DNA of 49,537 nucleotides, filler included, from Sphacelaria rigidula (GCA_964200075.2; 3 parts of 3 records of this genome joined end to end with filler, not necessarily neighbours in it), one strand, 5' to 3'; counted from the first letter of the whole stretch, positions 12,051 to 48,730 are shown. Numbers and translations are program-made. The notes: generated by a model from the sequence alone, not told the origin.

Positions 12051-12249
12051 TCCACAAAACACCCCTTACTGCCAACACGCACGCGAAACAAGTCATCGTC
12101 AGCCAAGGCAGCTTGACCGAAAGTCGTAGGAAAAGAATGAACACCGTCGCCGACTGTTTTGCGCTGCGCGGTACGAATGACATCTACCGAGGGCAGCGAA
12201 TCTTCGGCATCACACGGGCTGTACACGGCAACAGAACGAAGAGGCACGG

Positions 12250-16448: not shown

Positions 16449-16548
16449 NNNNNNNNNNNNNNNNNNNNNNNNNNNNNNNNNNNNNNNNNNNNTTAATTAA
16501 TTAANNNNNNNNNNNNNNNNNNNNNNNNNNNNNNNNNNNNNNNNNNNN
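16449..16548. other. Artificial contig spacer N44-TTAATTAATTAA-N44
   Basis: Exactly 100 bp; the 12-mer gives stops in all six frames. Confidence 0.97.
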
Positions 16549-23400: not shown

Positions 23401-26400
23401 CGATGACCTGCTTGCTTGCTTCCACGGTTTGGACGAATCAAATCGTGATTCAACACGTGTTCATCATTTGAACGAATAAATCATACGATTCGTACATCAT
23501 TCGCGATTTGTGTATGTTTTGAAGTGTACACATTCCGAGTTCGAGATTCGTGCGGTACACCGTGGAGGTACATGTTTCCTACCTTCCCTTCATTCGGGGT
23601 AAACTATGGGCACATAATTATCTCCTTTAGTTCATGTGGGACGAATCATGTGTACATGTCACCCTACGCTTAGTTCAATCGGCATGAATTTCATGTACAT
23701 CTGCCCACCCTTGAGTTCATGTGGGACGAATCATGTGTACATGCCGCCCATCGCTTAGTTAATTCGGCATGAATCGCATGTGCATCTGCCCGCCCTCGAG
23801 GTCATGGGGGACGAATCGTGTGTACATACCGCCCAACGCTCAGTTCATTCGGCATGAATCGCGTGTACATCTGCCCTGGGGTAACTCGGCGTGGATGACA
23901 CCCGGAAGTATTTTCGGGGAAAGGGGGTGGGGGATACGTAAACTAGTATCATACTTTAAGCTGTGTGGTTTGAGGTGTGTTTTGGGAACATCCATTATGT
24001 ATGCAATGACTTCTTGGTTCACACATGAAACAATTCGCACGGTCCCGCAGATGGCGACGGTTTGTTCCCGCTTTCCACCCGTGATTCATGAGTCATGAAT
24101 CGTGGGCACGTGATTTTCACCTTGCCTTCATACGACCTGCATCATGTGTACACGTTTCTCACCTTTCCGTCATCCGGCACGAATCAAGGGTACATATTCT
24201 CCCCTTTTCATCATGAATCCATGAGTCATGAATACATGTTTCCCAACTTGCCTTCATATGGCATAAATCATGGGTGCACATGTATCCCCTTTAGTCCATG
24301 CGGGATGAATCATGTGTACGTGTCACCCACCTTTGCGTTCATGTGGGATGAATCATTGATACACGTCTCCTACCTTCAATTCATACGGCATGAATTATTG
24401 ATACATGTCTCCTACCCTTCAGTTCACGCGGGATAGATTGTGAGTACATATTCCTCCCGTCAAGTTTATGCGGGATGAACCATGGGTACATGTGGCCCAC
24501 CCTGTGGCTCATGCGGGATGACTCATGGGTACATGTGGCCCACCCTGTGGCTCATGGGGGATGAATCATGAGTATGTGTCTTCCACCAATGATTCGTACA
24601 TGGACAATGATTCGTACGTGTTTTTCGATACTGATTCGTGTTACACAGCCTGAAGTGCACACATTTCAAGTCCATGATTCGTGCGGCATAACCTTGAATA
24701 TACAACTTCACCATTAGTGATTCGTACTGAATGACTCAAGGGTACATTATTCGCGCTCGATCATTCATTAGGAGTCAACCCGTAAGAACTCTGATTCGTC
24801 CGAACCGTGCTTCCTTCTACGCATCCGTGCGGCGCGTTTATGATTCGAACGAATATCTACACGTGACAGCCTTGCTGAGACGAGTCGCTGTAGAGATACG
24901 AGAATTAGACCGAAAGCTGATATACATGATGTGCAAACAAACGCGCGCATCTACTGGCAGGTTCGCGTCTTCTCTGACATGATCAACAACATCTTCGCGC
25001 CACTGTTTGAGGTGTCAGTGAATCCGGATGCCAATCTTGCGCTTCATTCGTTCCTCAAGACGGTGGTAGGATTCGACTCAGTTGATGACGAAAGCAAACG
25101 AGAGACCGTGCAGCTCCACCCAGACAGGTAGGTGCCTATCAGCAGGTCTCACCAAGAGTATTGAGAAAGTACTATATCGCCACAACTATTCTCCGTTTCG
25201 GTCATATTTTGTTTCATTTGGAGCAAGGATCCCTGTGTACAAAACGGAAGATAACCCCTTTATTTTTCACATGATATTCATATATATGTTGATCAATTTC
25301 GGAACACTTTACCTTTCTTGCATGTCATATATCTCGAGTTCGGAGTCAAAAATATCAAATGGTTCACGTCGCAATCTACGGGATGCCCTTGACCAGGACT
25401 CACAAGCGCTTTCACAGAGCGAGCGCCAGCATCGAGGCATGTACACGGGGGGAGGGCGTCCTCAATTTCCCGGCGGTTTCAGGAAATACCGACACGACCA
25501 AAGCAATCGACATTCCAATCGGCTCGCAAATATCGGACTCTATGCACACAAGGTGTAAATGAAAAGGTTCTTGTTCCGGTTGCCATCATGATGTGCTGTG
25601 TCACGTCATCATCCCAAATCAAGTGTTTTGTCGTGCGGGAAAGTTATATGCACATGTATCATTTCACAATTTTTCACCACTTTTGCCGAGTTTTCTTTGG
25701 CAGCAAGGCATCTTTTCCCGCGATTTCTTCTGCAGCGCACTGAGAAGGCTGAGCGGTACATGGCCGTTCAGGTTTGGGTGTCATCTGGTACCTGTGGCGC
25801 GTGTTCTGGCCACTGAAAGTCGCTCCAACTGGCCCTTTTTCGCGGGGTGTCGATTCCGAACCACAAAAGCCTCTTCAAGATCATGGAAAACTTGGAACAG
25901 GAACCCGAACCACAAAAAAATCCTGTGGAAGATCATGGGAATCTTCGAACACGATTACTGTTGGTGGGGTATTTTCCCCCCGTATTTCTCTCTGTCGCGC
26001 CCTCATTCATTTGGGAGCACGAACACACCGGTTATACGGCCAGTATCACGAGAACATGAGAACAAAGCAGTTGAAAACAAATGAACATTGCCTTGGCCTT
26101 AGTCAGCAGCAAACACAAGACCGTACAATGGGCCGTTGGCGAGTTGAACAAGGCACAGCAGCACGGCAGCACAGGAATATATTGCCGCAAAAACAGCAAC
26201 CCTGTTTAAACAACAGGCGCGGTGATGTGGAAGCCACAGTGATGTACAAAGAACGTGCCAAGAATGTTCCACGCATTCCAATTTTCGGGAGTGCCTCCCG
26301 CTGTCATATCTTTGTGGCACGAGATCTACTTCGCGCTCTGGCACCTCGGAAATACCACACATGTTCACCGCCGGTGGTTCCGCCGTCGGCCTCCGTCCGA

Positions 26401-29400
26401 ACTCCCATATTTGCGAACGACATCCGATTACACATGCGATGTTTTGTACAGCCACGATCACTAATGTACATTGAAATACAACAGCCTCTCTTGACCATAT
26501 ATTTTCGACTTGCGTTACCGCCGGGAGGCCCGTACCAACCTCCCGAAGGGGAAACTTGTATAATGTGTCGTCTTCACCGTAGTCAACAGCCTCAACGCAA
26601 CACCGTTGCCCATCAATCCTGTTGGCGCAAGCGCTCTGAGATGTGGCTGGCTGATTGACTCGCGGGTGCCCGGGACCAAGACCCTCCAGCGCTATCAGAG
26701 CGTGAGCGGTGACTTTTACAACAGAACGGCACATACCTGTACGACAAAAGTTCAGTCACAGAAAATGTCACCCCGAGCAAGCAGCTCCGACTTTCAAGTT
26801 TTCCCTCAGAGATGACACGCAAAGCACGTGTTGCTACTGCATGTGCATCTGGAGAGATGTCTATCCTCATTGTTTTCGGCACATATGCATATGTGGTGAG
26901 ATCAAAGTTTCGATGTTCCAGTAGGCAATACTTCTTGGCAAGCGGGAGTTTCTGAGACCGGCTGGTGCGCTGTCGCGGCCACAAGAGCATGTTGGGTTTG
27001 GTCTACCGAATCCGATGTCGGGAGACGTGACCATCAAGTCGCCCAGCTGCCAGATTGCCATGAAATTGTAGAGTGAAACACGTGGTTCGAAAGCGTTTCT
27101 AGATGAGCTCACAAGTCTAGTTTGGTGCACCACTGCATCCCACCATAGGAGACGGACTTGTATGAGCCCGGAGCCGAGAGTCGTCGTCTATGCAGAGTTC
27201 TTCCAACTGGATCCTACAAAGGTGTCCGCTGAGCGCCTGGATTGTCAGCTCTTTCCGAAGCATTTTCTCTTTTTTCCTACCGTGGATCATGTCAAAAGTA
27301 TCCAAACAATGGTTAACAACAGTCACGAGTATTGTCCTACTGCAGCGTTTCTTTCGCTGTTTCCCCCGAGAGCCTTGCTGCCCGTGGAGTTTTTTTATTC
27401 CAACAAACGTTATATCGCATTTTGTCTGTCGCAAACAGTGGAATTACTTATTATATTAATAATTGTACTGCCATGTATCACCTGTTTCACAGCAGTGTAC
27501 CCGATCATCATGTATGTCATACTCGACTTGAACATAAGCACGTACGAAGTATACTTCTGTGTATTGGCTGTTTTTCGGGCGGTACCGCCATACAACTAAT
27601 AAACAATGTTGCTCACTAGAAGGCGTTATTACCTTGAACTCGGCAAAATCCACGTCAGGTTCAAGGTGAGACCCGTGAACTCATCGGGAAAAATGGAGCG
27701 GTAATTAAGTAGTACTGTCTTCACGACTAACCTTGTCAAAACCAAATATTCGCTGCAAACCCCAAACGGGTTCGACTTGATAAGACCAGCGGAGCGTCAT
27801 ACCGCCCACGCCTTGTGTATTACATGCTGTGCGTCGCATGTACACTAGTGTTCTGAAATAATAAACTTTAGTTTCATCGTGCACCTTGGGTATTTCATGA
27901 TGGGTGACTAATTTATGAGGACAATATTTTGGATCAAGACGACAGCAATGACTTGCACATGTTCAAGGAGGGAGTCTATTTTGAGGGTTGAGGGCAAGAG
28001 ACCATGATACTTCAAATCACCATCTTTCCCTATATGCGCGAAACACTGCAACACGACAGTTTCAACGACAATGAAACACGCACACATCTCCACATCCCGA
28101 TGCCAACTCAAACTGTAAGGTCTTCGAGCGGTCACTGCTTTCCATCGCGCTCGCTCCCTAAGCGGTGATGTGTGTGTTCGTGTGTGTGTTCGTTTGTGTC
28201 GAGTTGTCGGTAGATTTTTTGTGCTGCGTTTATTGTCCATGGGGGCAAACGTTTTTGTTACCTGAACGTCACGGTAGGAACATACGTCCACTTCAGTGCC
28301 ACTACTACACTAGCAGTGCCGTGCAGTATACCGGGGGAGAGATGAGTTGATCCGTTGAGACCACGGAGTTGTCCCGAGGAAGGGAAGGAGTTGGAGGTGT
28401 GGCCAAAAGGAAAGTACGGTTCGCTGGAGAGTGTCACTTGGTGTCACTGTACAGGTGTAGGTGCAATAACCGCCAGCTCGGAAGTGCTACTGCCGTACTG
28501 CATGCATGGAGCAAAATTCCGTAATTTTCGCGTTCGCGTGTATCAAAGGTGCGCGGCAAAGAAGTAGAAGATATGGCTCTTTGCATCTGCAGACTTAGTT
28601 GTTATACTCGTAGGTGCAGAGCGAAAGTCTGATACTTGCCGCTCGCTACTTTTGGGGGATTTCCGAGGTTTAGTTACTGCGCATATAGTACAGCTAGGGA
28701 GAAAGGTAAGAGTTCTGGGTACACCTGCTGACTTTGAAATCGTGATCAAGTATCATACCGTACCAGCCAAGAATTAACAGGTGACCGTATTTGAAGGAGC
28801 TCATGTTGCTGCCGGATCTGCACCTCCAACTGTTCCAGAAAGTGCTCACGTACACCTCAACGTGACAAATAACCAACGAAGCATGTTCCGAAATCGCTAT
28901 ATTCCCGCATGTCTCGGGTCGAGGGTTGAAAACGAATACGAGTATCGGTCACGATCCTCACATGTGTGCGAAGTTTTATTCATATTTCATATCGCCCATG
29001 CAACACAATTTTCACGAAGATTCAACATCCACATAAGGAGTTTTTCCGAACCCATTGCCGAAATCGGTACTTGTTTTCACAAGACATGGAATACATCGTT
29101 GAAAAGTTGTGTTCAGGCGGATCAAACTATCGACTCAATTTTTTTTATTTTTGACGCGTGTACTGAGAAAATCGTGTTTCAGGTAAACATTGGTCAAGAT
29201 TTTGGAGCTCGAGAAAGGGATCTTGTTTTCTGTTTTACGTCAGATTTGAACATGTCTCGTAAAGAGGGAACTTCATATCAAACAAGTATAACCTTTTGGC
29301 CAAAATTGAGTAAGAAAAGCGAACTTAACCCCCTTCCCTCCACTCCAGCGTGGAAATTTATGCTCGATACTGAACCGATGAATGATCAATGTCGAGTAAC

Positions 29401-31939
29401 TCCACGGATTTGGACAAATTGGAACTGCACCCAGGACTTTTTTATGGTGAAAAACACTGCTGTTGGTCGAGCTAAACGCTTATATAAATCCGGACCCCCC
29501 ACCAGTTGTTTTTCCAACGAACATCTTGGATTCAATATACCCCAGCCGTTAGAGAATAGCTCATGCACGCAAGACCTGCTTCTCCGAAGAGCAGAATATA
29601 TTTACCCACGCGACAGCTCGTACGCGCCTTGCTTCGGTGTGATCATGAAAGTTTGTTTGGTGACAGGCTTCAATAAACTGGGTGTCGTTTCGGGTGAGTA
29701 TTGTTTCGAGTCGGATCAGTTTTCGGTCTTTCCGGGTGCTTTTGTGGTGATTTTTCAAAAAAGGACTTGGATTCGTCTCGGTTGTACGCGTCGTTCAAAC
29801 TTTTTTTCATGTGTCAACTCGCCCAATGACTGAGAAATAACGATGCCCCATCCAAGGACAATTGTGTTGCCTGGTTGCATGGAGCATATCACCCACGGAA
29901 AAAGAGCAGGAGCAGAAATGAATAATTTTTGGCACAAGACGGAATGGTGTACCTATCGACTTCGAACGAATGCATTTGCCCTCTGGGGGGCATTAGTTGT
30001 TCCAGCCGCATGTCTGTTTGGCAACACGTATTGGAATGGATAGCAACGCCGTTTGCTCCTGGGTGGAAGCCGATGGTATGGTGTGGTAATTAATCCTCGA
30101 TAAGCGGTTGCCGATAGCCGTTTTGACATGTGACAGTGTGTCCGTCCGCCGGTGAACTTGATCTGTTGGAAAATTGTTCAATTGTTCAACTACTGGTCAG
30201 GTATCTGCCAACGCCTCAAGCATGGGACCTCCAGGAAAACCCTCCTTACACATACTGGAGTTACTACATCTCGCAGAACATCACCAGCCTCAATCGCTTG
30301 CGGAAATCGAAGGTGAAAACATGCGGCGGAGTTACAAGTTATTGATCGCCAAGTCGAAGAATGCATTGCTTAGGAACTGCCGTTTCGCAGAGGATCCACG
30401 CTTGAAACATATCGCTCTTTCTATTGGATCGTGTTTGCCCGCTACCATCAATCGATCAGTACAACAGCAAGTGTATAAAACGTTACCGTAGACATACGTC
30501 TCACACCTCGCGTTTCGTGCTTGTGCTACACAAGGGGCTGAACACGTTCGAGTACCGACCTCACTGTGGAGAAGCAGGGGACGTGGAACACCTGGCGGCA
30601 TGTTTCCTTCTTGCCGACCAGATCAACCACGGTCTTCTCCTCAGGAAGGTCCCAGGTACCCACCCTTGTGTTGGTGATGGTGATGATTCGTGCCATGATA
30701 TGTACGATGTACGATGTACAGCCTACACTACTACAGGGTAGAATGCATCTTGTCGATTTGTTCGCAGTTCATGTTTAACGTCACACCGGCCTGCAGGGTC
30801 GTTGCATACTCGATACGGCGCCATAATTGCACTCACACAAGTGGATGTTTCTTCTCCCAACAGGACTGCAGTACCTGTACTACCTTAAGCAGATCGGCGT
30901 GGCTATGAGCCCACTATCGAACAACAAGCTTTTCCTCGACTATGCCAAGAATCCATTCCCGAAGTACTTTGCGCAAGGCCTCAACGTGTCTCTTTCGACG
31001 GACGACCCACTGATGCTCCACTACACCAAGGATCCCCTTCTAGAGGAGTACAGTGTGGCAGCCCAGGTAAAATCAGCGTTGGTGCATTTTTATTTCAAGG
31101 GTGTGGGTCGATCTCATTGGCCCCTCTCAATGTCGCATTGCTCTCGGTGTGTGGATTGCACTGAGAGGTGGCCCCGGGACATGGTCAAACCCCTGGTGGT
31201 ACGCACGTACTGTCCATATGCTGACAGTACGGAGGTATCGAAGATATTGATAAGAGTTCCTCGGTGAGGATGTTGCCATGATATAGCAATCGCCCTTGCT
31301 CGCGAACGGATCGTTTTTACTTCCTCTTTCTTCCTTTCGAGGTGTGGAAACTGTCGTCTGTGGATCACTGTGAGATTGCCCGAAATAGCGTCCTGCAAAG
31401 CGGGTACGAGCACCGCTTCAAGAAGCACTTCCTGGGAGACAATTATGACGAGGTACAGTAGGAGAGCAATCATGTATATTCGCTACGGTAGTACGTCCCG
31501 CAACCAGTCATCTCTGCTTGTAGTAACGCGTCGCATCCAACCCTGGAGGTTGCCTCAGCACGCTCGTTATTGAATGAGTTTGTCTACCCTGACGCGTTGT
31601 GCTAAGGTCGTATCGTTTCGGTGCTTGGGCTGTCTGAAGAGAAGCGGTCACGGTGACAGATGGCTGGCCTTGGACTTGGTCATTGTGAAGTTGGCATTAT
31701 TTTGTTGCTCTTCGGTTCCTTCAGTTCCCGCCGATCGCCTGGCATCCACCCATTCCCACTCCAGATCCAGACGCTTGCTGATGAAGGACAATAGGACTCG
31801 GTCGCTGATGGGTTCTCGTGGCCTGTCGAGGTATCTCAAACAATCTATTTATCTTGATTCGTTGATTGTGCAGGGCGCAGACGGCAACGACATTCGCATG
31901 ACCAACGTCCCGGATATTCGCCTGAGGTACAGGCATGAG
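17480..31939 (+). CDS. AMPD: AMP deaminase (multi-exon; start and final exon not resolved)
   Basis: Phase-consistent exons 17480-17593, 17898-17981, 18522-18621, 18906-19015, 19247-19361, 19673-19809, 20055-20186, 22322-22504, 22706-22764, 22980-23118, 24961-25127, 30201-30312, 30535-30655, 30864-31066, 31342-31452, 31874-31939. Hallmarks: [82 protein letters not shown]. Confidence 0.96.
20200..20247. repeat. (TTGTG)n microsatellite
   Basis: Directly visible. Confidence 0.9.
20359..20610. mobile_element. MITE-like element with ~70-bp inverted ends
   Basis: GCTCATTATTTCGAATTTCGGGGTGAAATTTTGA vs TCAAAATTTCACCCTAGAATTCGACAAAATGAGC. Confidence 0.65.
20649..20970 (+). mobile_element. tRNA-derived SINE copy (second subfamily)
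   Basis: Head GCCCCGGTGGTCCCATG...GGATTCGATTCCCG plus the shared core TTGATCCCTTGAGACCAC...GGGGAGGGGTT. Confidence 0.7.
20983..21552. mobile_element. Palindromic MITE-like element with an internal partial duplication
   Basis: ~21013-21146 is inverted at 21278-21414 with high identity; ~20983-21072 is inverted again at 21465-21552. Confidence 0.75.
21705..22012 (-). mobile_element. tRNA-derived SINE copy, inverted partner of 20649-20970
   Basis: Reverse complement TGTGGTCTAATGGCCAGACTGTCACC...TTCCCGTCAG...ATTTGATTTCCATCGTCGAAAACGTGA aligns along the whole 20649 copy. Confidence 0.7.
23196..23309. mobile_element. 114-bp hairpin MITE flanked by TTAA (piggyBac-like)
   Basis: TTAA at 23192-23195 and 23310-23313; perfect 20-bp inverted repeat CCTTTGGGAACCCAGTGCTG / CAGCACTGGGTTCCCAAAGG; pairing continues inward (GTGAATCGGCA / TGCCGATTCAC). 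Confidence 0.8.
23565..24580. repeat. Degenerate ~42-43-bp tandem repeat in two blocks, interrupted at ~23878-24080
   Basis: Unit about GTTCATGTGGGACGAATCATGTGTACATGTCACCCTACGCTTA; alternating 43/42-bp variants in the first block. Confidence 0.85.
26099..27300 (-). pseudogene. Probable decayed transposon-associated ORF (DUF6729-like), antisense within an AMPD intron
   Basis: Ordered fragments across frames: SPD...PTCSCG...PRSI..., [22 protein letters not shown]...SRKYM. Recognised from memory only, with several stops and frameshifts. Confidence 0.3.
28321..28410 (+). mobile_element. Truncated SINE core fragment
   Basis: GTTGATCCGTTGAGACCACGGAG..GTCCCGAGGAAGGGAAGGAGTT matches the family core. 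Confidence 0.6.
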
Positions 31940-32994
31940 GTGAGCTATCACTCATCGTAGGTGGAGTAGTTATCTATATTTATGCACAGCAAGTATAACC
32001 TAGTGATTCTTAGCATGTCAAACCTCTAACTGCATTTTACACTTACCATGGCTACGGTAGTGGTTCTAGAGCTGTAGCCGTGTTTTTTCTCGATCCTGAA
32101 GTTTTTTACATGTAACGATCCGGATTTTGCATTAACAGAGGTTTACGGGTTTCTCCGGCAGATGCCTCTGTGTGCAGCTTCAACAGCGCCTCTTATGCCA
32201 TCCGCTAGGAGTTGAGCAGTGCAGCACACTGAATGGTTGTTCCGCAATTGTCTACAAAAGGTATACCCTCTCGTTTTTCGCCCAAGAAAGGTACGAGAAC
32301 TGAACAGGAATGTGAAAACAGCAAAACACACAATCTAGACAGTTTTCCTTCCGAATTTTTCATGCACATACATCAATCGGGCGTCTAGTTGGCACCCGGG
32401 CTCCAAAAAAAAACAGAAGAAAAACATGTCGCTCGCGATACACGGCCATGCGCAGAAGGACGTCTCGCCTCGAGAAACCACTTCCCCTTTCTAGGCCAAT
32501 ACCCACCAGGTATACCAGACCCAGGAATTCTTCTGAAACCGTACGAGGGTCGGGCAAATAATGATTCGTCTGGAAATTACTTGGTTCTAGTATGATGATT
32601 CGACTCGTGACGAATCTGTCCCTAGACTTTTATTTCAGCGTTGCAACCCAGGTACACGCAACCCAGACACGTGGAATGGCGCAAAAGTTGCGTGGATACC
32701 TCTTGGACCAGTGATCAACTTTTTTCTATTTTTTGGGCAATCAGGCCGAAGAAATCGTGAAGATGATGATTTAGAGTCGTGATGATTTGTCCGAACCGTG
32801 AAACCGTACCTCATTCTTCTTATCCGTCCCTTGAACCAACCATCACTGTCATGGGTGCGCCTGACCCCCCAAACTGGGCAAAAAAAGTGTCACCGACCAA
32901 AATCACGAAAAGACACGAACATATCGACTTTTGGGGCTTATTCAGGCTCGTCGGGTAAAATATGCCCAACGTCATCGGAAGAGAACGACATGGA

Positions 32995-33094
32995 NNNNNN
33001 NNNNNNNNNNNNNNNNNNNNNNNNNNNNNNNNNNNNNNTTAATTAATTAANNNNNNNNNNNNNNNNNNNNNNNNNNNNNNNNNNNNNNNNNNNN
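32995..33094. other. Artificial contig spacer N44-TTAATTAATTAA-N44
   Basis: Same 100-bp structure as 16449-16548. Confidence 0.97.
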
Positions 33095-33786
33095 GGGGGG
33101 GGGTGTGAGGGGTCCGGCCTCCTGGCGCGTGGCGGCGGCGACATCGAGACGGTTGGGGGGGGGGGGGGGGGGGCGTGACTAGGGCGTGATGGGCGCCACA
33201 TTCTTCATGCTCTGGTAAATACGACAAGAACAAGAGGCTTCACAGTAAAAACACGTGACTCATCACGTACTTCGTTTCTTTCGGGGGCAAAGGAGCGATA
33301 GCACAATCAGATCTCCGAGGTACGTTGAACAGTAACGTCCCACCCACGATAATGATTAGCGTCCCATCGTCTCGAAACTTCTGTTTTCAAATTATTTGAA
33401 CTGGCGGACAGGCGTGACTAACACGTACGAAAGTGGACCAGCGTCCACCCTGATGGACTGCATACGACCGTCCCTTCTTTACCGCTTATGTCATGTTGAA
33501 ATGTTGCAAGATTCCAACAACAATCAATGTCATGTAGAACTGTTGTGTCAAGGTGAAAATAATCATCACATACCGTATCGCCCTCTCCGACGTTTTGGGC
33601 CATTTTCCCCTACGGCCATCTCCTGCCGACGCTAATCCCTCTTCGCGTTGCGCCTGTATGACCTTTCATTGGATGTTTACCTCGCGTTCTATACACACCC
33701 ATAGCTGGCGAATTTGAATTTCTTCGTTACAACCCGACATGCACTGCCGCAGTATGTTCGTGCTCTATTTTGCTCCCCGTTCGTGC

Positions 33787-33990
33787 TCATCGGTGAGATT
33801 CATTTTTTTTTACCCGACTTCCGTTGCCGCTATAAGTTAGTGATCATCGGCGAGTAAGTAATTTGTTTTTGCCAGACTTGCACCGCCACAATACGTTCAC
33901 GATCATCGGCGAAATTCCTAATTTTTCGTTCATGATTTTTGACTTGCACTCCCGCTATTCGTTAATTATCATCGGCGAATTTCCTATGTT
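33787..33990. repeat. Degenerate tandem repeat, 4 copies of a TCATCGGCGA anchor at 57-66-bp spacing
   Basis: Anchors at ~33787, 33844, 33903 and 33969; intervening sequences are related (GACTT.C...CCGC.A). Confidence 0.75.
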
Positions 33991-34096
33991 TTCATGCTGT
34001 TTTCCCCTTGTCTAAAACCCCCCAAAACAACAAAAAACGCATCCCATTCCATCCATTGAGACATTTGAGACGTTCTCGAATTTGGTCACATCAGCG

Positions 34097-34719
34097 TAGA
34101 TATCTCGCTCACCGTCTCTTTCACGTAAATCCGGCAATATCCCCGCCACCGTGTTCGACGATCCAGCCCGCTTCTTGGCGAAGAGGGCGGTGCGCAGTGT
34201 AGTCAGCTTGGAGCGGGGCGCGCAGAAGAGTAGCCTGCACATCCCGCGTATCCTCAATACCGGCATCGTCAAGTCCTACTCGGACTACTGGAGGCTAGCT
34301 CAATGCTGACGTCCGGAAAAGCATCAAGACATTTGAGGGATGGGGTTCGGATCTCCACCTCAACAATGACGTTACGCCACCGGGATCGAAGCAGTACTTC
34401 GAGGGCAAGTTACTTGCAGCAAGTAACTTGATGCTGCTAACGGCTTCACGTCTATGTTGAGGCGGAGATCCGGACCCCATCCCTTAAATGTCTTCATGTT
34501 TTTCCGGACGTTGACGTTGAGCTTCTTGTCGTCCGAGTAGGACTTGACAATGCCGAGATTGAGGACACCCCGTATATGCAGGTTACTCTTCTGCGCGCTC
34601 CGCTCCAAGCTGACTACACCGTGCACCGCCCTCTTCTCCAAGAAATGGGCTACATCGTCGAACACGGTGGCGGGGATGTTGCCGGATTCACGTGAAAGAG
34701 GCGGTGAGCGAAAAATCTA
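34097..34719. mobile_element. Inverted pair of decayed Replitron-like HUH endonuclease fragments forming a ~620-bp palindrome
   Basis: Minus arm: DFSLT..GNIPATVFDDVAHFLEKRAVHGVVSLERSAQKSNLHIRGVL...KTFKGWG..LNIDVKPL. Plus arm: DISLTV..SLERGAQKSSLHIP...GSKQYFEG. Perfect 25-bp hairpin at the centre (34406-34430). Confidence 0.65.
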
Positions 34720-36752
34720 TGGGGTTACCTGTCAACATATGCTACTCATCCTGCTGCTGGACCGCGATTTCAGCCTGGTTGTCGCTTGAAAAACACCACA
34801 GTACTAAGCGAAAAACGTGGCGCGGATGTTCAAAGTATCAAATCCACCTGTAATTCGAATACTTCCCGAGCTACCAGACCAACCGATATGGTCGTCTGTT
34901 AGTTGTCGGCCGGTGACGGAAGTGCTTGCCACGGTGTCAGTCATCATCTACGAAAAGCTCATAAACCGCTATATATCGATTGGTCTCCTAGCTCGGTGAA
35001 GTCACGTGAAAATACTAGCGCGCCGGGGACTCTCAGGGTCCCTCAGTTGTCATTGACCTCCATAAACACTCCACTTGAGTCGAGGAGAGCGCGCTTGCCC
35101 TGACAAACTTGCGGCAAGGCGCCTCTGGATCGGTAACCGATTACGTTACGCGATTTCATCTTCGCTTCTTGTGTTCTAGAAGTGACGTTAGATCCTGGGA
35201 CAGACGCGTAACAGACGTAACTTGGCCTTGCGGGCGCAAGCATGCTGATCTGGCTTAGTGACAGGTCTGTGCCAAAAACACTCGCGAAGGGGCTATTGTA
35301 GGCTCGTTGCCTCGCCCTACTATTCGCCCCTCGACTCGGTTATCCTTGGCCACAACCTCGACATCGAGTGAAACCTCAGGAACCTCGACACTTGTTCCTC
35401 ACGAGAGGAATCTCACCTCGTTTTCCGGTCAACGCGTATCAGTGAGGTGATGGAGTAGGTCCTTATATCGGGGACACCATCATTGATACCGTAAAAAAAT
35501 GTACCAAATTCTTGACGAACGAGACACATCGCAAACAACTGCTTGGTGGTCGGGGGTGGAGGTGGAATCAATAATCGCTTCAGAGACGGGCTCGCATATT
35601 TGCGGGGACAACGCAGTCCGGAGGAAGACGTACTCATGTGTCACGATCGAGAACGAGAGATGTGAGCCGGAATACACGCCGACTGCCCACACCAAGTGTG
35701 TTTTTGGCTCAGCGCACCATTATTAATCATGGGTTTGGGCATGGCACCAAATCGCGACGCTGCGTGTGCTGTGAGTTACGATCCGTCGACGGATAATGAG
35801 CAACCGCAGTCCATATCACAGCACCAGACGCTTGTCATCTCTTTTTGTACCGACAAGGCATCATCATTGCGGTACAAATCGCGTTTCGTACTATCAGAGG
35901 TTTTATATCCCTCGTACGTGCACCCCGAGTCGTCTGGCTTGTCCTGAGGCTCGGGCGCAGCGGGGGATTTGGCGAGAGGCGGAGCATTGCGGCGTACAAG
36001 AACCTGCTGCTGAGTCGGGATGTTGGCGCGTTCTAAGCAAAAAAAAAGAAAGCACGACACCGCTGAACCTACGTCTCACCGCCGCTCTCAATGGAAATCT
36101 GTTACACGACATCAACCGAAAACACGCCTCGGATACACCTGTCACTTAACGCTCGTCATTTTACCGTATTGACCGACCATCACGCTCTCAGACGCTGTGG
36201 TACTACAGATGTGGTACTCGAGGTAGCGAGCACATTCATCTCCCGTGAGGTGTCGCGTGTATAACCACCGAGATTTGGAGGTGCAATTGAGCGACTTGAA
36301 ACTCTTCCCCGTCTGGGTGTTTGGTCGCAGTTGTTACATGGTTCAGCAGATGTAGCAGTGGTGTACAGTTTGCACGTCGGTGGGACGGTACAGACAGGCA
36401 GTACACGTACAGGTACAGCATAGTAAGCAAATGCCTCAAGCTTGCCTCAAGTCACCCAGGGTACTGTCTGCACATGGGGCGTGTCACAAGGGTGGCATTA
36501 GGCGGTATTGTACTGACGGTACTGTTCTCGTGTCATCGTACTGCTTGCTGGTCGCTAATACTTTTCAGGCCCCAGTCGTAACGCCTAAAGTTTGCACAGA
36601 TGATTGCAGCCCCGCTATCAATTTATCGGGGTTTTGCGGACACCTTCTGCGCAAAGGAGCATACTTGGTGCCAACTGCACGGAATTATGGTAACAGTTCC
36701 TCGACAACGCAGGAACACTACTGCGTGCGGTCTACTGTACTGACGAGCTCAC

Positions 36753-37130
36753 CTCTGCGCACCGCTTGGTAACGATCACCTCATCCCCAAATAGAGGAGA
36801 CGGGCCACTACTTCCGGAAGCACCATGACTTGCCGCTGCCGCGGCAGAAAACTCACGATATCGCAAAGGCTTCCAATTCTCCCTCGACCCTCGAAGGTTT
36901 GCTACTCTCCCCACTGGTACGGTTCGTCGTCGCTGTGCTATTGATGCAACATCGTCACGTCGGCACATAGGCCGGCATTTGCTGCTGGTAGCAGTTGAGA
37001 TTCCTTCAGCTGATATGATGTCAAGCTTCGGTGTTCGAGAAGCTTGTCGGCCTAATGCGATTCCTAGGGCAGTCTTCGACGTCGAAGCACTGAACGCCAT
37101 TCTACGTAAGGAAATCAGTGGTGCTACCAT
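36753..37130 (-). CDS. First exon of a probable mitochondrion-targeted protein, possibly IscA/ISCA2-like Fe-S assembly protein
   Basis: ATG at 37130, 126 codons, R/S/A-rich N-terminus, ending DEVIVTKRCAE at a strong donor GAG|GTGAGC; this resembles the IscA start IxLTxxCxxR. Downstream exons (GGCSG, CGC) not found. Confidence 0.45.
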
Positions 37131-37705
37131 AGTGCTGAGCTAGCCAAAGCGCGATGGTGGCGCGCACGAACGTGCGGACTCTCTGCTGTTATGCGGCGAA
37201 GCTCCGAAGAGGCATATATGTGGGTGCGAACAAACTAAAACAAAAGCTAGAAAACACATTTCCCACACTAGGTTCCACTTCAAGTCAGTTCCCGTTGACC
37301 GCTGCGTGAGTAGTTACATAACAGGACGAGAGAAGACATTACCTTTAACTTGCATTGTGTACACCCCCTGACCATCAGTTGGGAAGATATGCAGTCGCCT
37401 TGCTGTGGTAAGCAATGGATCGGGAAAAAGTAAGCCATATTGATATAGCGCGATGTTGTGTATATTTGCTCTCCAAAATATATATTGTACTGTGCTCAAG
37501 AGTAGTACAAGTCCACGTTTCGTGACCTCATGAAAAAAATTGGTGGTCACTTAGTAGTTCGTGGAGATTGCATTCATACAGGCACCAAGAAAAGGACTGC
37601 CGTGAAATTGGGAGGCAGAATACACCGGGGTTAACGAAGGGTTCCAATGTTTGAATTTAGAGCTTTTCCGTGGGGGAGCACCAATATTTTCCGCTCGCGG
37701 AGGAT

Positions 37706-38948
37706 TGCTACGGTAGGGGTGCACCAATATTTTCTGAGGTAAGAATAATAATTGTTGTTGGGAGCCCTTTATCTCATGCAAAACGCGACCTATGAAAATA
37801 TGTAAAAGTACGCCAGGATTACTATTCCAATGTGCTAGGGATATCCCGAATGAATTTGCAAACGGATGCCCTGACCCCTATTCTCGTGAATCTAGAATCG
37901 TTAGGAGCCCCTGAGCCAGACAAGATTTTGGGCAAAAAGTGCGTCCCTAACCTAGCATTGCTCAGCGGGGGCGAGAACAGATCCGCCTCTCACGTCCGGA
38001 TTCCCCGCGAGTCGTTTATTTCCCGAAGTTCGCAGCGCTATATCCTCTACTAATAATACTACCCCTTTCCATGGAAACGCGAGGGTGGGATATGAAGGAC
38101 CACGGCCACAAGCAGCAGTAATTCTGGGTATATGCGATGGAACATGAGGGTGCTTGGTAGCAACAGACCAATGCTACGGTAGGGGTGCACTTTTTTCGCG
38201 AAATTTTGTCTGGTTCAGGGGCTCCTCACTCTTCTAGAAGACGCACAAGAATATGGGCCANNNNNNNNNNAGTCGTGTTTTGGATGAGATGAAGGGCTCC
38301 TAACAAACCTAACCTTAGAAATTATTTGTGTACCCCTACCGTAGCATCACTCAACAATCAGTTTAGTCAACATCATCATCAGGAAGTACCTAATGTTCAA
38401 GCATAATTTTTTATAACTTTCTGGGTGCGGTCAGAAGTTGAGATTTCCTTCGAGAGAGGATGGGGAGTCCAAACTTCCCATCTAAATGGACACTTTGAGT
38501 GGTGCTGCGGTATGGATGCACAACTTTTTTTTGAGGTTCGAATTGTTAGGAGATCTCCATCTTATCCCGAAAAACGACTCATGAGACATGCCAGGGCAGG
38601 TCGTGGAGAGTATACTCAATTGCGGGGTATTTTGAAAGACGTTCTTGGGGTACTCAAGTTGGGGTAGAGTGTTGGGAGTCGTACCCAAAATATAGCTGGG
38701 AAGCGATTCCTGAAATTCTACCCCCAATTTGTGTACTTTAAGTGCGAGTATACTCTACTCGACCTACCCTTGGAGATATGTATGGTACTGTGGAGCACGC
38801 CATGATTGGCGTTTCAATTGGGCTAGGGAGATCCCGAATGGAATTGAAAACGGGAACGTCCTGACCCATATTCATGTGAAACTCCTAACTTGAGGAACCC
38901 CCGAATGAGAAATATCTGGCCCCGAAATGTGCAACCCCTACCGTAGCA
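37706..38948. mobile_element. Cluster of three ~250-bp MITE copies with TIR TGCTACGGTAGGGG
   Basis: Copy 1 at 37706-37957, copy 2 inverted at 38172-38346 (10-N gap inside), copy 3 right half at ~38800-38948 ending CCCCTACCGTAGCA. Confidence 0.75.
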
Positions 38949-39537
38949 TCACTTGCAAAACAACACTAGTGCGAGCGACTAGTATGGACGTCACCCATAC
39001 ACCATGAAGTGCGGTATCAAGAGGCACCACACACGTGTAAGACTCTCACCGTCGGTCCCGAACGACAGTATAGAGGTGACCTCCAAGTTTGAAATGTTTT
39101 GAACGATGCGCATGTCTGCGCCAATGATGACACTTGGCAACAATAGTAGTAGTCGAAGAGTCATGCGTCAACGTATCGTGGTACGTCCTAGACACATGTT
39201 GCACTCAAATGAAGTGTTTTTGCGTGCGAACTTTGGAACAAATGCTGGGGTTGGCCGAGCAATATGGTTTCAGTTGCTGGGCATGAAAGATAGCAACGCA
39301 TACTGTTATACGCCGTCAAGATGTAGGGCGCGTAAGGGATGCATGCTACGTGCGCGCGTAGGCGATGTATATGCTGCATGCTTCAGATATAATGACTGAA
39401 TATTTCGCTATGTTGATGATGTTTGCGCACTTTCGAGTGCGCTCAGGTAGTGGGACGCCGTAAGTTCTCACGCGCAGAATGGGGAACCTCGCGATCAGCG
39501 CACTTCGTCTGTCAACTCTTGTCCCCACCCGCTAGTA

Positions 39538-39965
39538 ACACGGGATCTTACAAATTGGGGATGAGAGACCTGGAGAATGAAAATCTTCGTATCCACACAA
39601 AATCTTCGAAATATATATGGTTCCATTCCTTCGCCTGCTGATAGCTATTGACAACTACTACACGCCGTACAAATTTGGATCTCGATCACCGAAATGTTGG
39701 GATCCTAGGTGAAGAACCAATTTTGGGGAATTTTAAGTGTCCGAACGGACACCAAAATGGTTCCGAAATTGTTTTTTCGCCTGGGGCCGCAACGTTTCGG
39801 TGATCGAAATTCAAATTTCCATGGCGTGTAGCAGTTGTCAATAGCTGTTAGTAGGTGAAGAAATGGAACCATATTTCGAAGATTTGGTGTGGATACTAAG
39901 ATTTGAATTCTCCGGGTTTCTCATCCCTAATAAAAGATCCATCCCCAATTTGTAAGATCCCGTGT
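39538..39965. mobile_element. MITE with ~165-bp TIRs
   Basis: ACACGGGATCTTACAAATTGGGGATG at left, CATCCCCAATTTGTAAGATCCCGTGT at right; pairing continues to TCGATCACCGAAA / TTTCGGTGATCGA. Confidence 0.8.
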
Positions 39966-41036
39966 TTAGTGTCGACTGCGCAATTTTACTAAAAATACAC
40001 ATGTCGCGAGTTTTGATGCTCCTCTGCGACCTGCCGACGAACATCGATAAAATCATGAATAGCAGCCATGCAAAGTCCGATACAGGCTATGTTCACATCC
40101 TGAAGATACCACGAGTCCCCCCTGGAAATCTCACAGATTCCGTAAATCTCACAGCCACCAGCAACGATCCATGGGGCTGCAGTTATTAAAAGATGAGAAA
40201 CAGACCCAGCCCGCAACCGAGAAACATGGAGACGAGACAGTACCGCTTGACCGAAAAACTACTCAAGAAACGGAGCTCGAAGTCCATCACAAGATGAGAA
40301 ATAACCAAATAGGAAATGACCCAATCCTGGCGGCAAGCCGGTCACGTTGACAGTGAAAACCAAGCAAAGGTTCGTATACAAGGGCGATCGGCGATACTAT
40401 CACACCGCGGGTAATCATATTAGTTCAGACCCTGGCCCGCGGCACGGAATGGGCGGACCGTTCACGCAGCCAAATGCGTAGGTATTGGCAAATGGCTCAA
40501 GTCGCAACGGTGGCTTGTTCCTATCTTCTGGTCATGGAATGCGCGCCTGCGCTCCAGGATGCATCCTGCGTGAATCAAGGGGCCAATGGAGTACAAATGG
40601 ACGTGCAGGCAGTGCCGCTTTCAGTTTCGTTGGCGTTTCTCGGAGTTCAGGGAAGAAGCAATGGAAGGTTGAGCTTGGCACCCGAGACCGGTGGATCTTA
40701 CACAATGCAGCTAGTACCGTTGGGCATGACACTTCGCGACTAGGCAAACTCTTGGTTCTGCGGAATCATACGAACACAGGTCTCACTTGTCGCCAGGATA
40801 GCGCGACCATCAGGTTCCTGGATGTCTTGCTAGAATCGAGACGATGAATGCCGGAGCATTATATCAATGCCTGCAATATTCACCTGGTCTTGGGGACCAC
40901 TCCCGCCTTCCATCAGTCAGCTCAAGACCACCAGTGCTCGAATTTCTTTCAATTCGTACGAAAGGAATCGAGGACTCGTCAAGACTACACACCAGCTGTC
41001 TCGCGGGGTGAGGTCATGGCGCACTACTCTCCACCA

Positions 41037-42817
41037 TCAGACGGCCTCAATCCGACCTAGTATGAACTGTATAGCAGGCTTGACCGTCTGGCCGCAACTG
41101 CAAGCCGTGCCTTGTAGACTCCATGCCCCGAGCTTGCTGCCGCAACTCGATCCATTTCTGCCCAGACAGATGACCTTACCCGAGCACTCGCCTCGGGATA
41201 GACCTCCGTCGGCACCCGTCATTCCGATCCAAGGCAACCCCTCTGTAAACACCGACGTGCAAGTGCCACCGGTAGTCCCTGGCCTACCACGACCGTTGCG
41301 AGAGGACTGACCCTTAATTTTATGGTCTCTTGACTTCATAGGTGCATTGGTGGTGGATGCGGCGGACGCAGCATCTCTTGCCGCAAGCCAGGAGCTTCCA
41401 TCTCCATGCTTGGCAATGGCTTCGTATGTTGTCCCGCTGGCGGCAAGGACAACTGGATGCACGTGATCGATTACGTTACGGCAAGTGAATAGAGTCGCGC
41501 GGCACGCCTTGCATCGATAGCTCCTTATCTTCGCCCTCAATCCTGTCGCAGCAGTTGGACTTTCTTGCGCCGGGCCAGCATCATTCTCTCCTGACTTCAG
41601 CCAATCTGGAGCGGAGCCTGACGGGACATATCCACCGTATTTTCTCAAAGCATTAGCAAGAAGGAACCAGCGGTACGTGGCATCAGCCGTGAGCACTGTC
41701 GGTGGACCATCGCCTGCCGTTAATCTGCAGTTCATGTCCTGATATAGCGCAAGTTGCGCCTGAAACCCAGGATTGATGCTGACTGTTGGCTGGGCGGCAC
41801 GGGTCAACTCCATAGCCTCCACCAGGGAAAACCTCCTGTGCTTCATCAAATAGGCGACAACAACTGAGAAGTAACGGGCGTAGAGAGAAGCACGGGACGG
41901 AATAAATTACGGCGGTGAACGATCTCCGATGGTGCTAACGCGCTATTAGTAGGGCATCCAGCTTTAAGGCGTTGTGCTGTAAGATAGGGTGAACGACGAT
42001 TCCGGCTAATAGATTTTCGGGAGCCCAAACCGTATCACCCGAGGTTGGCACTTTGAGGGTGGTATACCACGTAATCCTGCATCGTGTAAGTGCCACCGTA
42101 GTGCGACTAACAGCCGAAAACTCATCACCCGAGGACGCTATTCAAGAAGGGGTCATTTTGTACGCGCATGTGTCGTAGGAAAAGCGTTGCACGATATTTC
42201 CATGAAGTTGTAGATACTGAAGATATCCTCGCGTGCGTGCCGAATCAACATCGAACCAGAATAGACAGGCCTGCTTTTCAAGTTACTGGAGTTCGATATA
42301 CAGCCAGTGCCTAAAGATGGGCCGTTTATTCCACCATTATACAACAGCATAGGGGCTACTCGTGCAGAAAACTGTGCGGGCACCTTTAACATCTCTCGCA
42401 GTCCCTCTTATCCTACTGACGTGTTGAACGTATGAGTACCCAGCAGTACATACCGGTGACGCTCCTGCTCTGCGCGAAAACGCAGTTGACCAGAACGTTT
42501 TGTCCCTTCCTTATCCCAGCCTCAATGAACGACATGCACTCATCGAGATGAGCCAGTAAATTCGCCGACGGCGTGTCCAGCACGGGGATCTCTAGGTAGG
42601 AAAATTCGCCAGGGTGGAACTGCGGCGTGCCAACGCACAAGACCCGTGATACTCGATTTCGCCGCAACAGTACCGCATCCTGAGCCGCCCGTTGTGTGCC
42701 GAGAAATAGTTGGCCTTCAAGACCTTGGTTCGTGTTTGCTTCTCCTGTCGAGATCAGATGGATTCCTTCATCACCGTTATCAAGTGGCACAGCCACCTGG
42801 GAAATTGCTGCTGACAT
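41037..42817 (-). CDS. DUSP12: Dual-specificity phosphatase YVH1/DUSP12 family with C-terminal zinc-binding domain, ~396 aa
   Basis: Exons 42817-42454 and 41863-41037 (phase-1 GT-AG intron, 1191 nt in total). LFLG, VLDTPSANLL, VLVNCVFAQSRS, VAYLM, INPGFQAQL, then YRCKACR...C...CGSKLGAWSLQGTACSCG. Confidence 0.9.
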
Positions 42818-43208
42818 TGAAAGTTCCGACCACGAGAGATCGTGTAGAAACTGAATACCTACAGCAGTTGTTTGAAATGATGGATTTCCGACAACTCGTT
42901 CTCGTTATCAGTATCGATGGTAGCACACAAGTAGCACAAGCACAACTCATCACCGGTGACTGCCGCTTGAGTAACAGGCACTGCAGCCACAGCAACACTG
43001 CGGGGTAATAAGTATGGAAGATGACCACAAATATCAAGTCATTGTCTGTATTTCATCCGCTCGGCTTTTTCCTTCGGTTGAAACTTTAATTTGAAAAACA
43101 GGCACCGACTTATGCCAACGAGGTGTTGGCTGCGGTCAGCGGTCGGGGGACGATCACAACGATTTTTTTACTCTACGCATATTCTTGTGTGGGGGAATAA
43201 TCACAACG

Positions 43209-45829: not shown

Positions 45830-45982
45830 TTTTGAACAGGTGCTCAAGCGTTCAGAATCGTCACCCGATTCTGAACGCTTGGCCAAAATTTTGCACTTTT
45901 TGGGGTCCGTTCAAAATTTTGGAGGTCAAAATCTTGACGAGTTTGTTCCATAATGGTCGGTTTCGTGACCACCTGTTCAAAA
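45830..45982. mobile_element. Small palindromic element with 13-bp TIRs and an internal perfect hairpin
   Basis: TTTTGAACAGGTG / CACCTGTTCAAAA; 16-bp stem CAAGCGTTCAGAATCG-TCACC-CGATTCTGAACGCTTG at 45845-45881. Confidence 0.6.
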
Positions 45983-47949: not shown

Positions 47950-48730
47950 CTTCCTTTATTCATGACTTTTTTCACCGTTTTTCGGGGGTCCCAGTTTTTG
48001 CGGGGAAACATCGATGCAATCGGACCCCCGTAGAACGGTATTGAAAAACTCAATCATCCAATGTTGCTCAATGATTCATAGCTTGGTTGTGCAAAAATTC
48101 AGGGTCTAACTCCTTCAAACGGCCTGAGGTTTTTCGCTCTTGTGCGATGAACTTTACTGTACCGCGGTGAAACCGCAAACTACTTGATTTTAGTACAAAA
48201 ACGGCGTTTTGGGGCCTTCTTTGACGTGAACATGAATTTCAAGCATCAGTTGTTCGATTTTTGCGACGAAATTTTGTAGGGTCCTTCCTTGGCTTATGCG
48301 GCGACAAATCGTCCACGAAAAAATGAATATATATATATATATATATGTATATATCTTAGTGCCGGTTTTCCGGGTTCCCAGAACGGAGACTACTTCGAAA
48401 AACGAGTTGGATCCCGTCGGATCCCCGAAAAACCGTGAAAAATCAAGAAGTAATAAATCCTCGCCCGGAAAAAGTTGCGTAATGACACATCGTATATTTG
48501 TGCAAAGTTTCAGGGTCTAACTCCTAATAACGGCGTTAAGTTTTGCGCGTTTGTGGAGGACGTGGGTTTGAAACGTTGAACTCCTAAGTACTTGGTTTTA
48601 GTATTAAAACGTCTTTTTGGGTGAGTTTTACGTCACGGCAAGAAAAATTGTATGAGGTTTTCGAGTTTTTCCACCAAACTTTGTACAAGGGTTCCTCGGA
48701 CTATCCTGGGACGCACCTTTTTACTATTTT
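47950..48730. repeat. Two tandem ~400-bp copies of a dispersed repeat separated by (TA)n at ~48327-48354; a third, inverted copy at ~46030-46320
   Basis: Shared TGTGCAAA..TTCAGGGTCTAACTCCT..AACGGC.T.AGGTTTT at ~48088 and ~48499, reverse-complemented at ~46228-46274. Confidence 0.7.

Follow-up and report, generated by a model that had tools for sequence, protein, structure and literature searches.

We identified, in a 49,537-nucleotide (nt) stretch of DNA from the alga Sphacelaria rigidula (GCA_964200075.2; three parts of three records joined end to end with filler, referred to here as the window), an inverted repeat at positions 34097-34719 whose two arms are, judging from their sequence, decayed copies of one part of the transposase (Rep) gene of a Replitron. 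We put the probability at roughly 0.6 that a Replitron transposase gene fragment of about 335 base pairs (bp), already dead, was duplicated in reverse onto itself, so that the arms meet 14 nt into the intron that followed the fragment. The locus combines the marks of a foldback duplication, namely inverted arms, a symmetric centre and lesions common to both arms from one template. Eukaryotic genomes commonly contain foldback duplications and inverted repeats derived from transposons.

The two arms of the inverted repeat, 34097-34418 and 34418-34719, lie tail to tail and are approximately 86% identical. Repeat finding resolved them into an outer pair (34097-34296 and 34520-34719; 200 nt, 87% complementary) and an inner pair (34297-34378 and 34442-34523; 82 nt, 84% complementary). 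When the region was compared with the window by blastn, 34097-34719 was returned as a reverse match to itself with 80.6% identity over 643 columns including gaps (E 3.9e-175). Both methods bear out an earlier first-pass annotation of this DNA, which had described a palindrome of two diverged arms facing tail to tail at these positions. Local alignment pairs 34097-34378 with 34719-34442 and opens a single gap of 4 nt, at 34293-34296; arithmetic from the alignment score indicates that about 240 of the 278 aligned arm positions are identical. The palindrome could not be extended outward, as a local alignment that included 300-nt flanks halted at 34097 and 34719 on the outside and at 34378 and 34442 on the inside. 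A likeness between GGTCAC and GGTAAC beyond the outer boundary was considered and was not significant.

The hinge of the palindrome consists of perfect 12-nt arms (34406-34417 and 34419-34430) with one base between them. We observed no perfect stem of at least 12 bp with a loop of at most 6 nt in any of 60 first-order Markov simulations of the window, and the central hairpin, which the first-pass annotation had also reported and which repeat finding recovered, is beyond chance. A shift of 16 nt separates the register of the hairpin from that of the arms, the sums of paired positions being 68816 for the outer arm pair, 68820 for the inner arm pair and 68836 for the hairpin. This offset is reflected in the gap between arm and hairpin, which is 27 nt on the left (34379-34405) versus 11 nt on the right (34431-34441), with poor alignment of the two. 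Folded as DNA, 34379-34441 forms two hairpins (-14.6 kcal/mol, z -4.2), and the one at 34386-34402, with a 6-bp stem, falls within the stretch that is missing from the right arm, which is a net 16 nt shorter. The 27 nt on the left are a genuine exon end. The offset is most simply accounted for by a later net loss of 16 nt from the right arm beside the hinge, and loss of the hairpin-forming stretch by slippage would be a plausible way for this to have happened. The first-pass annotation had also taken the perfect centre within diverged arms as a sign of a later event. No such event is needed, because at an identity of about 86% per position 12 pairs have, by simple arithmetic, a chance of about 0.16 of remaining intact.

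Evidence for the identity of the arms came from protein family profiles and from predicted proteins. The right arm matched the Pfam family PF21859 (Replitron_HUH) with 28.1 bits (cutoff 28.5; E 2.9e-6; profile positions 9-87 of 128), and the first open reading frame (ORF) of the left arm matched the same family with 22.5 bits (E 1.5e-4; profile positions 7-49 of 128). At a threshold as permissive as E <= 10, the only other Pfam match of either arm was a weak one to DUF3634, and no viral Rep family appeared. The first-pass annotation, which had named a Replitron-like HUH endonuclease and had proposed a comparison with the Replitron HUH profile and with other Rep profiles, was correct on this point, PF21859 being the sole meaningful Pfam match on the arms.

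A word-indexed search of longer proteins returned P0001 (252 amino acids, E 4.7e-31) as the sole relative. This protein is 66% identical to the right arm over 88 amino acids and, by tblastn, 58% and 56% identical to the left arm in two frames. A search of 1.84 billion representatives with a profile constructed from P0001 and the arms yielded 26 proteins at E <= 0.001, with 14 at E <= 1e-10 and two at E <= 1e-30. The PF21859 cutoff is passed by 20 of the 26 relatives, with scores of 44.6 bits for P0001 and 43.0 bits for P0002, the nearest ones; three fall below the cutoff (P0009, P0018 and P0026) and three have no match to the family (P0003, P0021 and P0022). P0024 additionally bears the Replitron C-terminal domain PF21860 (Replitron_C).

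Replitrons were described in 2023, and the hallmarks given for their Rep proteins are a motif I of the form S-U-T-U, a conserved Glu, HUQ in place of HUH, one catalytic Tyr, located in G-Y-x-x-K, and the lack of a helicase (Craig 2023, PMC10288648; this paper, PMC9977147 and PMC7467729 are cited throughout for parts of their text). The relatives show HUQ and GYCSKD and have long disordered N-termini. That they fit the published family description and match PF21859 identifies the arms, at the level of sequence comparison, as Replitron Rep (HUH) sequence. An AlphaFold2 model of the right arm, with a predicted local distance difference test score of 72.2, has a helix at residues 16-29, strands at 30-39 and 46-54, and a second helix at 63-75. 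A profile search of PDB sequences found nothing related, and the best scores in the ESM Atlas, 0.77-0.78, were under the level for a lead.

Both arms retain recognizable Rep motifs. The right arm encodes the peptides DFSLT, SGNIP, SLERS, LHIRG, GWG and DVKPL, much as the first-pass annotation had described for both arms; the left arm encodes DISLT, SGNIP, SLERG, LHIPR, GWG, DVTPP and QYFEG, so that LHIPR and DVTPP stand where LHIxG and VKPL had been listed. Motif I (S-U-T-U) is present as DFSLTA in the right arm and as DISLTV in the left arm, where DISLT occupies 34099-34113, and in each case its frame is one base off from that of the rest of the arm. This offset, which had been noticed at the outset as common to both arms, is due to an extra T in the same T run (34119-34121, with the mirror A run at 34695-34697). 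P0001 and P0002 lack the extra T and read DFSLTVSSR[N/E]SGNIP in one frame, and motif I is split off in the arms. Past the common +1 T, the right arm is open for 103 codons (SRESGNIP...SLERS...LHIRG...DVKPL). The left arm reads SRKSGNIP...SLERG...LHIPR, and a private insertion of 4 nt at 34293-34296 then shifts the frame and leads to a stop. After this insertion the left arm continues with LNADVRKSIKTFEGWG...PGSKQYFEG, a stretch in which a match to the end of the relatives' exon is still evident, P-G-S-K-Q-Y-F-E-G corresponding to L-G-A-K-Q-S-F-G-G of P0001.

The conserved Glu is kept in both arms (SLERS in the right and SLERG in the left), and this residue, E38, is nearly invariant in an alignment of 29 rows. 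Motif II is altered in both arms. Neither H-U-Q nor H-U-H is found, the right arm having H-I-R (34578-34570; CAT ATA CGG, Arg) and the left arm H-I-P (34238-34246; CAC ATC CCG, Pro) where the relatives have Q, and the Gln codon has been changed at its second position in each case. The extra T common to both arms, together with the hit on the Gln codon in each, shows that the template was dead before it was copied in reverse, and both arms are dead today. With no motif III, no C-terminal domain and the Gln of HUQ lost from both arms, the locus encodes no working enzyme.

The arms differ from one another at 32 of 245 in-frame nucleotides, with 10, 12 and 10 differences at the three codon positions. 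The proportions of nonsynonymous and synonymous sites that differ (pN and pS) are 0.126 and 0.150, respectively, and the ratio of the corresponding rates (dN/dS) is 0.83. The arms have drifted neutrally since the duplication. With P0001 or P0002 as the outgroup, 12-13 private amino-acid changes fall on the left arm and 6 on the right arm, a difference that is not significant. On the right, Rep similarity overruns the palindrome by 13 nt (TGNPI, 34732-34720) before it ends at a stop codon; over the stretch TGNPIDFSLTAS (T-G-N-P-I-D-F-S-L-T-A-S), 11 of 12 residues match P0001. These 13 nt have no counterpart in the left arm. The overrun indicates that the original unit was at least about 335 bp long and that position 34719 is not the terminus of an element.

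The rest of the Replitron gene is absent from the window. When all 26 relatives were used as tblastn queries, matches were confined to 34100-34732, and with P0024, which carries Replitron_C, only the Rep part matched the window. Both arms stop short of motif III, and G-Y-x-x-K with its catalytic Tyr was found neither by tblastn with the seven relatives that bear motif III nor by a six-frame search of 33095-38260. The same six frames contain neither the N-terminal C-P-T-T-G-D..D-D motif nor G-Y-C-x-K. Likewise, no further match to PF21859 or PF21860 was found among the 107 ORFs of at least 100 amino acids in the window or among the 88 ORFs of 50-99 amino acids in 32000-40500.

Where the palindrome turns can be judged from the relatives. 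In this family, motif III comes directly after a conserved Q-T-F-x-G, as in the F-S-G-M-L-G-Y-C-S-K-D of P0004 and P0005, and P0014, P0019, P0020, P0024 and P0025 have similar sequences. Counting back from the end of the P0004 Pfam match and assuming no gaps, the Gly lies at approximately profile position 94 and the Tyr at approximately 98, and in protein terms the palindrome would turn about four residues before the catalytic Tyr. The earlier placement of the hinge at the catalytic-tyrosine region holds in this sense; the DNA at the hinge is most likely intronic. Similarity is lost right after the Gly of F.G in 10 of the 26 relatives (P0001, P0002, P0003, P0008, P0010, P0011, P0012, P0013, P0017 and P0023), whose first residues after the break are, in that order, E, E, K, K, E, A, A, K, K and E. 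Seven relatives (P0004, P0005, P0014, P0019, P0020, P0024 and P0025) continue into motif III, two (P0006 and P0016) end at F.G, and seven (P0007, P0009, P0015, P0018, P0021, P0022 and P0026) stop or diverge before it.

The general eukaryotic splice donor consensus is G/GT-GAG or G/GT-AAG, and reading through such a donor gives residues of the E, K and A type seen here. By eye, the donors of the AMP deaminase exons elsewhere in the window resemble that consensus. The sequence G/GCAAGT at 34404/34405-34410 sits at the same residue and in the same phase as the break in the 10 relatives, directly one base into the codon for the Gly of F-E-G. Because 10 of the 26 relatives break off exactly there, with E, K or A, we read the hinge as most likely lying 14 nt into an intron, the existence of which is suggested by the predicted proteins of the relatives. 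The predicted GT/GC-AG intron after F-E-G would begin ...AAGTTACTT. The hexamer ACTTGC (34412-34417) is the reverse complement of GCAAGT, and the centre alternates between the two as GCAAGT-T-ACTTGC-A-GCAAGT-A-ACTTG, which can be written U-T-U'-A-U-A-U'. The first-pass annotation had seen in GTTACTTGCAGCAAG a near match to codons for GYCSK. The motif itself is real, being present in P0004, P0005, P0014 and P0020. Its assignment to this DNA is not supported, as it needs two indels or more and half of the 15-mer is situated past the symmetry centre, and the donor-like GCAAGT explains the letters without any indel. A donor-like hexamer together with its complement probably gives rise to the resemblance by chance. 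P0001 and P0002 have in common, after F-x-G, a stretch E-(KP)-F-L-R-(C)-Y-C with two in-frame indels, and the tail of P0002 contains S-G-Y-A-S some 30 residues further on. The common stretch could represent either an intron start that has been conserved or a motif III that has diverged.

We favor the copying back of one dead template because the junction is symmetric to the base, the prior frameshift is common to both arms, and the outer limits of the arms are nearly equal. In this model, the source fragment would have begun shortly before Rep motif I and reached the end of the exon bearing motif II, and copying would have turned round at a tiny native palindrome composed of GCAAGT and its complement ACTTGC. 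The turn could have been made either by a single strand folding back to prime its own copy or by a template switch at a replication fork. Subsequent decay, neutral in both arms, would account for the approximately 14% substitutions, while the left arm would have acquired its 4-nt insertion and lost its outermost 13 nt, or diverged there, and the right arm would have undergone its net 16-nt loss adjoining the hinge. The fold-back mechanism, the intron and the order of the later deletions are all three inferred. A bolder proposal, which we regard as very unlikely, sees in the palindrome a footprint of Replitron biology instead of generic break repair: a single-stranded transposition intermediate would have stopped early at the small GCAAGT/ACTTGC hairpin, snapped back to prime its complementary strand and been captured in the chromosome, and the hairpin locus would since have supplied small RNAs against Replitrons. 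If true, this would be the first sequence-level evidence of single-stranded, self-priming intermediates in Replitrons.

Several observations weigh against the duplication of one dead template with a hinge in an intron. The score of the right arm is 0.4 bits below the Pfam cutoff, and the right-arm model gave no match in the PDB at E <= 0.001 with Foldseek, the top row being the HPV-18 E1 DNA-binding domain at E 0.39, with a circovirus Rep domain (7kij_A) at rank 9 and E 0.71. The hinge is 16 nt out of register with the arms, and the innermost 27 and 11 nt are not confidently alignable. A one-base loop is too small for a fold-back primer, and the original centre may have been altered. The intron is read from predicted proteins of relatives only, and BLASTP aligns FLRYC, which follows F.G in P0002, with MIGYC of P0019, in which case this stretch would be coding and not intronic. 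Finally, the 15-mer at the hinge resembles codons for GYCSK, a likeness with a chance of about 1e-3 by rough arithmetic.

These last points bear on the possibility that one dead template folded back with no intron involved, its hinge lying inside decayed coding sequence for motif III (GYCSK). Besides the BLASTP alignment of P0002 with P0019, it can draw on the four relatives (P0004, P0005, P0014 and P0020) in which GYCSK comes right after F.G-M-[LV], and on the hinge sequence GTTAC-T-TGCAGCAAG, which equals GGT TAC TGC AGC AAG save for one inserted T; the source was already a pseudogene, which makes more indels plausible. However, motif III coding would require three changes older than the duplication (a deletion of 5 nt, a substitution and an insertion of 1 nt), and the 15-mer passes the centre at 34418 with its final five bases, which are a copy of the other arm rather than native code. 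P0001 and P0002, moreover, break after F.G with E, just as GT GAG would read, and the presence of GCAAGT at the exact break residue and phase would have to be a coincidence. We therefore consider a motif III hinge unlikely. We are more doubtful still that break repair during transposition connected two separate Replitron copies, 3'-truncated and dead or non-autonomous, tail to tail. Whole Replitrons act in this way at translocation breakpoints in Chlamydomonas reinhardtii (PMC9977147), the divergence of the arms is as expected of two family members, and the right arm is 13 nt longer outward than the left. Yet the C. reinhardtii breakpoints are at the right ends of the elements (PMC9977147), whereas the junction here is in the middle of the Rep gene. 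Base-exact symmetry, with 12 perfect pairs around one base, would require that both copies had been broken at one and the same nucleotide; the outer cuts of the two arms, too, lie at almost the same point, and the 49.5-kb window holds no other copy of the family.

The remaining alternatives concern the nature of the locus as a whole. Folding of the 623 nt as RNA gives a single hairpin that is long and imperfect (-486 kcal/mol, z -47), and inverted duplication of a target gene is reportedly a route to hairpin-RNA and microRNA (miRNA) genes, as would suit a hairpin-RNA gene maintained to silence Replitrons or, alternatively, a multicopy foldback element of Rep sequence that is non-autonomous and resembles a miniature inverted-repeat transposable element. 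Both are highly improbable: blastn found no second copy of the palindrome within the window, no target-site duplication or terminal direct repeat was seen by eye at 34097 or 34719, and the Rep similarity that continues 13 nt past the right boundary shows that this is not an element terminus. Neutral drift with indels, furthermore, erodes the stem. A protein search at similar length with the ORF that runs through the hinge gave three candidates and none at E <= 0.001, which is weak evidence, as the collection seemingly lacks this genome. We give very little credence to an origin of the arms from the Rep of an integrated CRESS-DNA virus (a virus whose circular single-stranded DNA encodes a Rep), which would make them an endogenous viral element and not a Replitron. 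A distant relationship exists between the Reps of Replitrons and CRESS-DNA Reps (PMC10288648), and a circovirus Rep is among the weak fold matches, but Pfam returned no viral Rep family even at E <= 10, ORF scans with Pfam found no helicase domain nearby, and the relatives have HUQ, GYCSKD, long disordered N-termini and, in P0024, Replitron_C. Hardly credible at all is a chimera of assembly or amplification, an artificial fold-back. Although N44-TTAATTAATTAA-N44 linkers join short contigs in this window and the contig in question starts with poly-G, artificial fold-backs have identical arms, while these arms show approximately 14% differences and indels of 4 and 16 nt, an extent of divergence that excludes such an artifact and had already led the first-pass annotation to think a chimera less likely. 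The locus is also some 1 kb from the contig start.

Table 1. Features of the palindrome and its left flank, in window coordinates
Feature	Position	Strand	Evidence
Four tandem units of ~57-78 bp with a ATCATCGGCGA core	33735..34005	+	Repeat finding (family D1), alignment
Left arm, Replitron Rep gene fragment	34097..34405	+	Pfam PF21859, tblastn to P0001, arm alignment
Small hairpin TCGAAG-CAGTA-CTTCGA, left-arm exon end	34386..34402	+	DNA fold, global arm alignment
Splice-donor-like hexamer GCAAGT	34405..34410	+	Sequence read, DNA search
Hinge, perfect 12-1-12 hairpin, symmetry centre 34418	34406..34430	.	Repeat finding, simulation, DNA fold
Right arm, same Rep fragment	34431..34732	-	Pfam PF21859, 66% identity to P0001

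The window contains two linkers of the form N44-TTAATTAATTAA-N44, a six-frame stop spacer, at 16449-16548 and 32995-33094, as well as an N10 gap (38261-38270). The contig beginning at 33095 opens with long G runs (33095-33173) and has the palindrome about 1 kb inside it; scans of ORFs against Pfam detected no gene in this contig (33095-38260). To the left of it, exons of an AMP deaminase gene were found on the plus strand at 22909-31957 as pieces of Pfam PF19326 (profile positions 309-616) separated by long introns. A gene split in this way indicates that the DNA is eukaryotic nuclear DNA. Linkage of the palindrome to the AMP deaminase gene is not established, because the linker at 32995-33094 separates the two contigs.

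The tandem units listed in Table 1 lie about 90 bp to the left of the palindrome and have no counterpart on its right side. Three of them carry an exact ATCATCGGCGA core and one carries a core with two mismatches, at spacings of 57, 59 and 66. Their mean column identity is 62%, and their common pattern is GACTTGCAC..GCCGC..ATA..CGTT..ATCATCGGCGA. Tandem Repeats Finder, run on 30000-39000, returned 0 rows and did not report these units, and a search of the whole window against Rfam returned 0 families.

Other features of the window were as follows. Two minus-strand ORFs within 41040-42904 match the catalytic domain of dual-specificity phosphatases (PF00782) with 43.1 bits and 28.6 bits, the latter below the cutoff, and they are probably exons of one gene. 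An integrase zinc-binding domain (PF17921, 34.6 bits) was found on the minus strand at 11578-12183, in a region between about 10 and 16 kb of the window that is GC-rich and has a strong negative GC skew and many overlapping ORFs; this integrase fragment is probably a remnant of a long terminal repeat (LTR) retrotransposon. Of the perfect palindromes with a short loop in the window, the longest is a hairpin at 45845-45881 whose stem is 16 bp and whose loop is 5 nt; stems of 12 bp or more were produced by none of the simulations. An (AT)10 microsatellite is present at 48327-48346.

To our knowledge, Replitrons are rarely annotated, and the locus, together with its relatives P0001 and P0002, documents a diverged Replitron lineage. 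It also illustrates that fragments of a Replitron gene can persist as inverted duplications. Gene finders could miscall such a locus as an ORF of 103 codons, and hairpin transcripts are possible. The sole conceivable activity of the locus would be the formation of a long hairpin if it is transcribed, and a role as a source of small RNAs is conceivable as a prediction from its folding. The locus reveals no new mechanism.

Inverted duplication of a target gene is said to be a birth route of hairpin-RNA and proto-miRNA loci. Like such loci, the palindrome is an inverted duplicate of a gene fragment that would give a long hairpin if transcribed; here, the target would be a transposon. A search of the accessible literature found no description of a foldback relic of a Replitron gene, and neither "inverted" nor "foldback" occurs in the main text of Craig 2023 (PMC10288648). 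Foldback inversions and palindromes mediated by short inverted repeats, which arise via single-stranded DNA hairpins (PMC7467729), likewise have a short self-complementary centre and arms that are identical at birth. Those are chromosome-scale rearrangements studied in yeast and cancer, whereas the locus described here is a 0.6-kb relic whose one-base spacer is below a feasible loop.

The closest comparisons are with Replitrons themselves. The arms resemble the Rep of PF21859, as represented by Replitron-1 of C. reinhardtii (PMC10288648), in the S-L-T of motif I, the Glu of SLER and the His of motif II. They differ from it in covering only about 79-90 of the 128 profile positions, in being frameshifted, and in having R and P in place of the Gln of HUQ. 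Unlike a whole Replitron, the locus has no motif III, no oligomerization or C-terminal domain and no recognizable termini, and it is an inverted duplication. In mutation-accumulation lines of C. reinhardtii, tail-to-tail pairs of Replitrons were found at translocation breakpoints (PMC9977147), and these pairs, like the two arms, are two Replitron-derived sequences with their 3' ends facing one another. The C. reinhardtii pairs, however, consist of whole elements whose right ends became linked as a side effect of insertions occurring simultaneously (PMC9977147), whereas the arms are internal gene fragments with a symmetric joint and a common prior frameshift, and are old, having diverged by approximately 14%. 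The palindrome is one decayed locus and belongs to a familiar kind, inverted duplications of transposon fragments.

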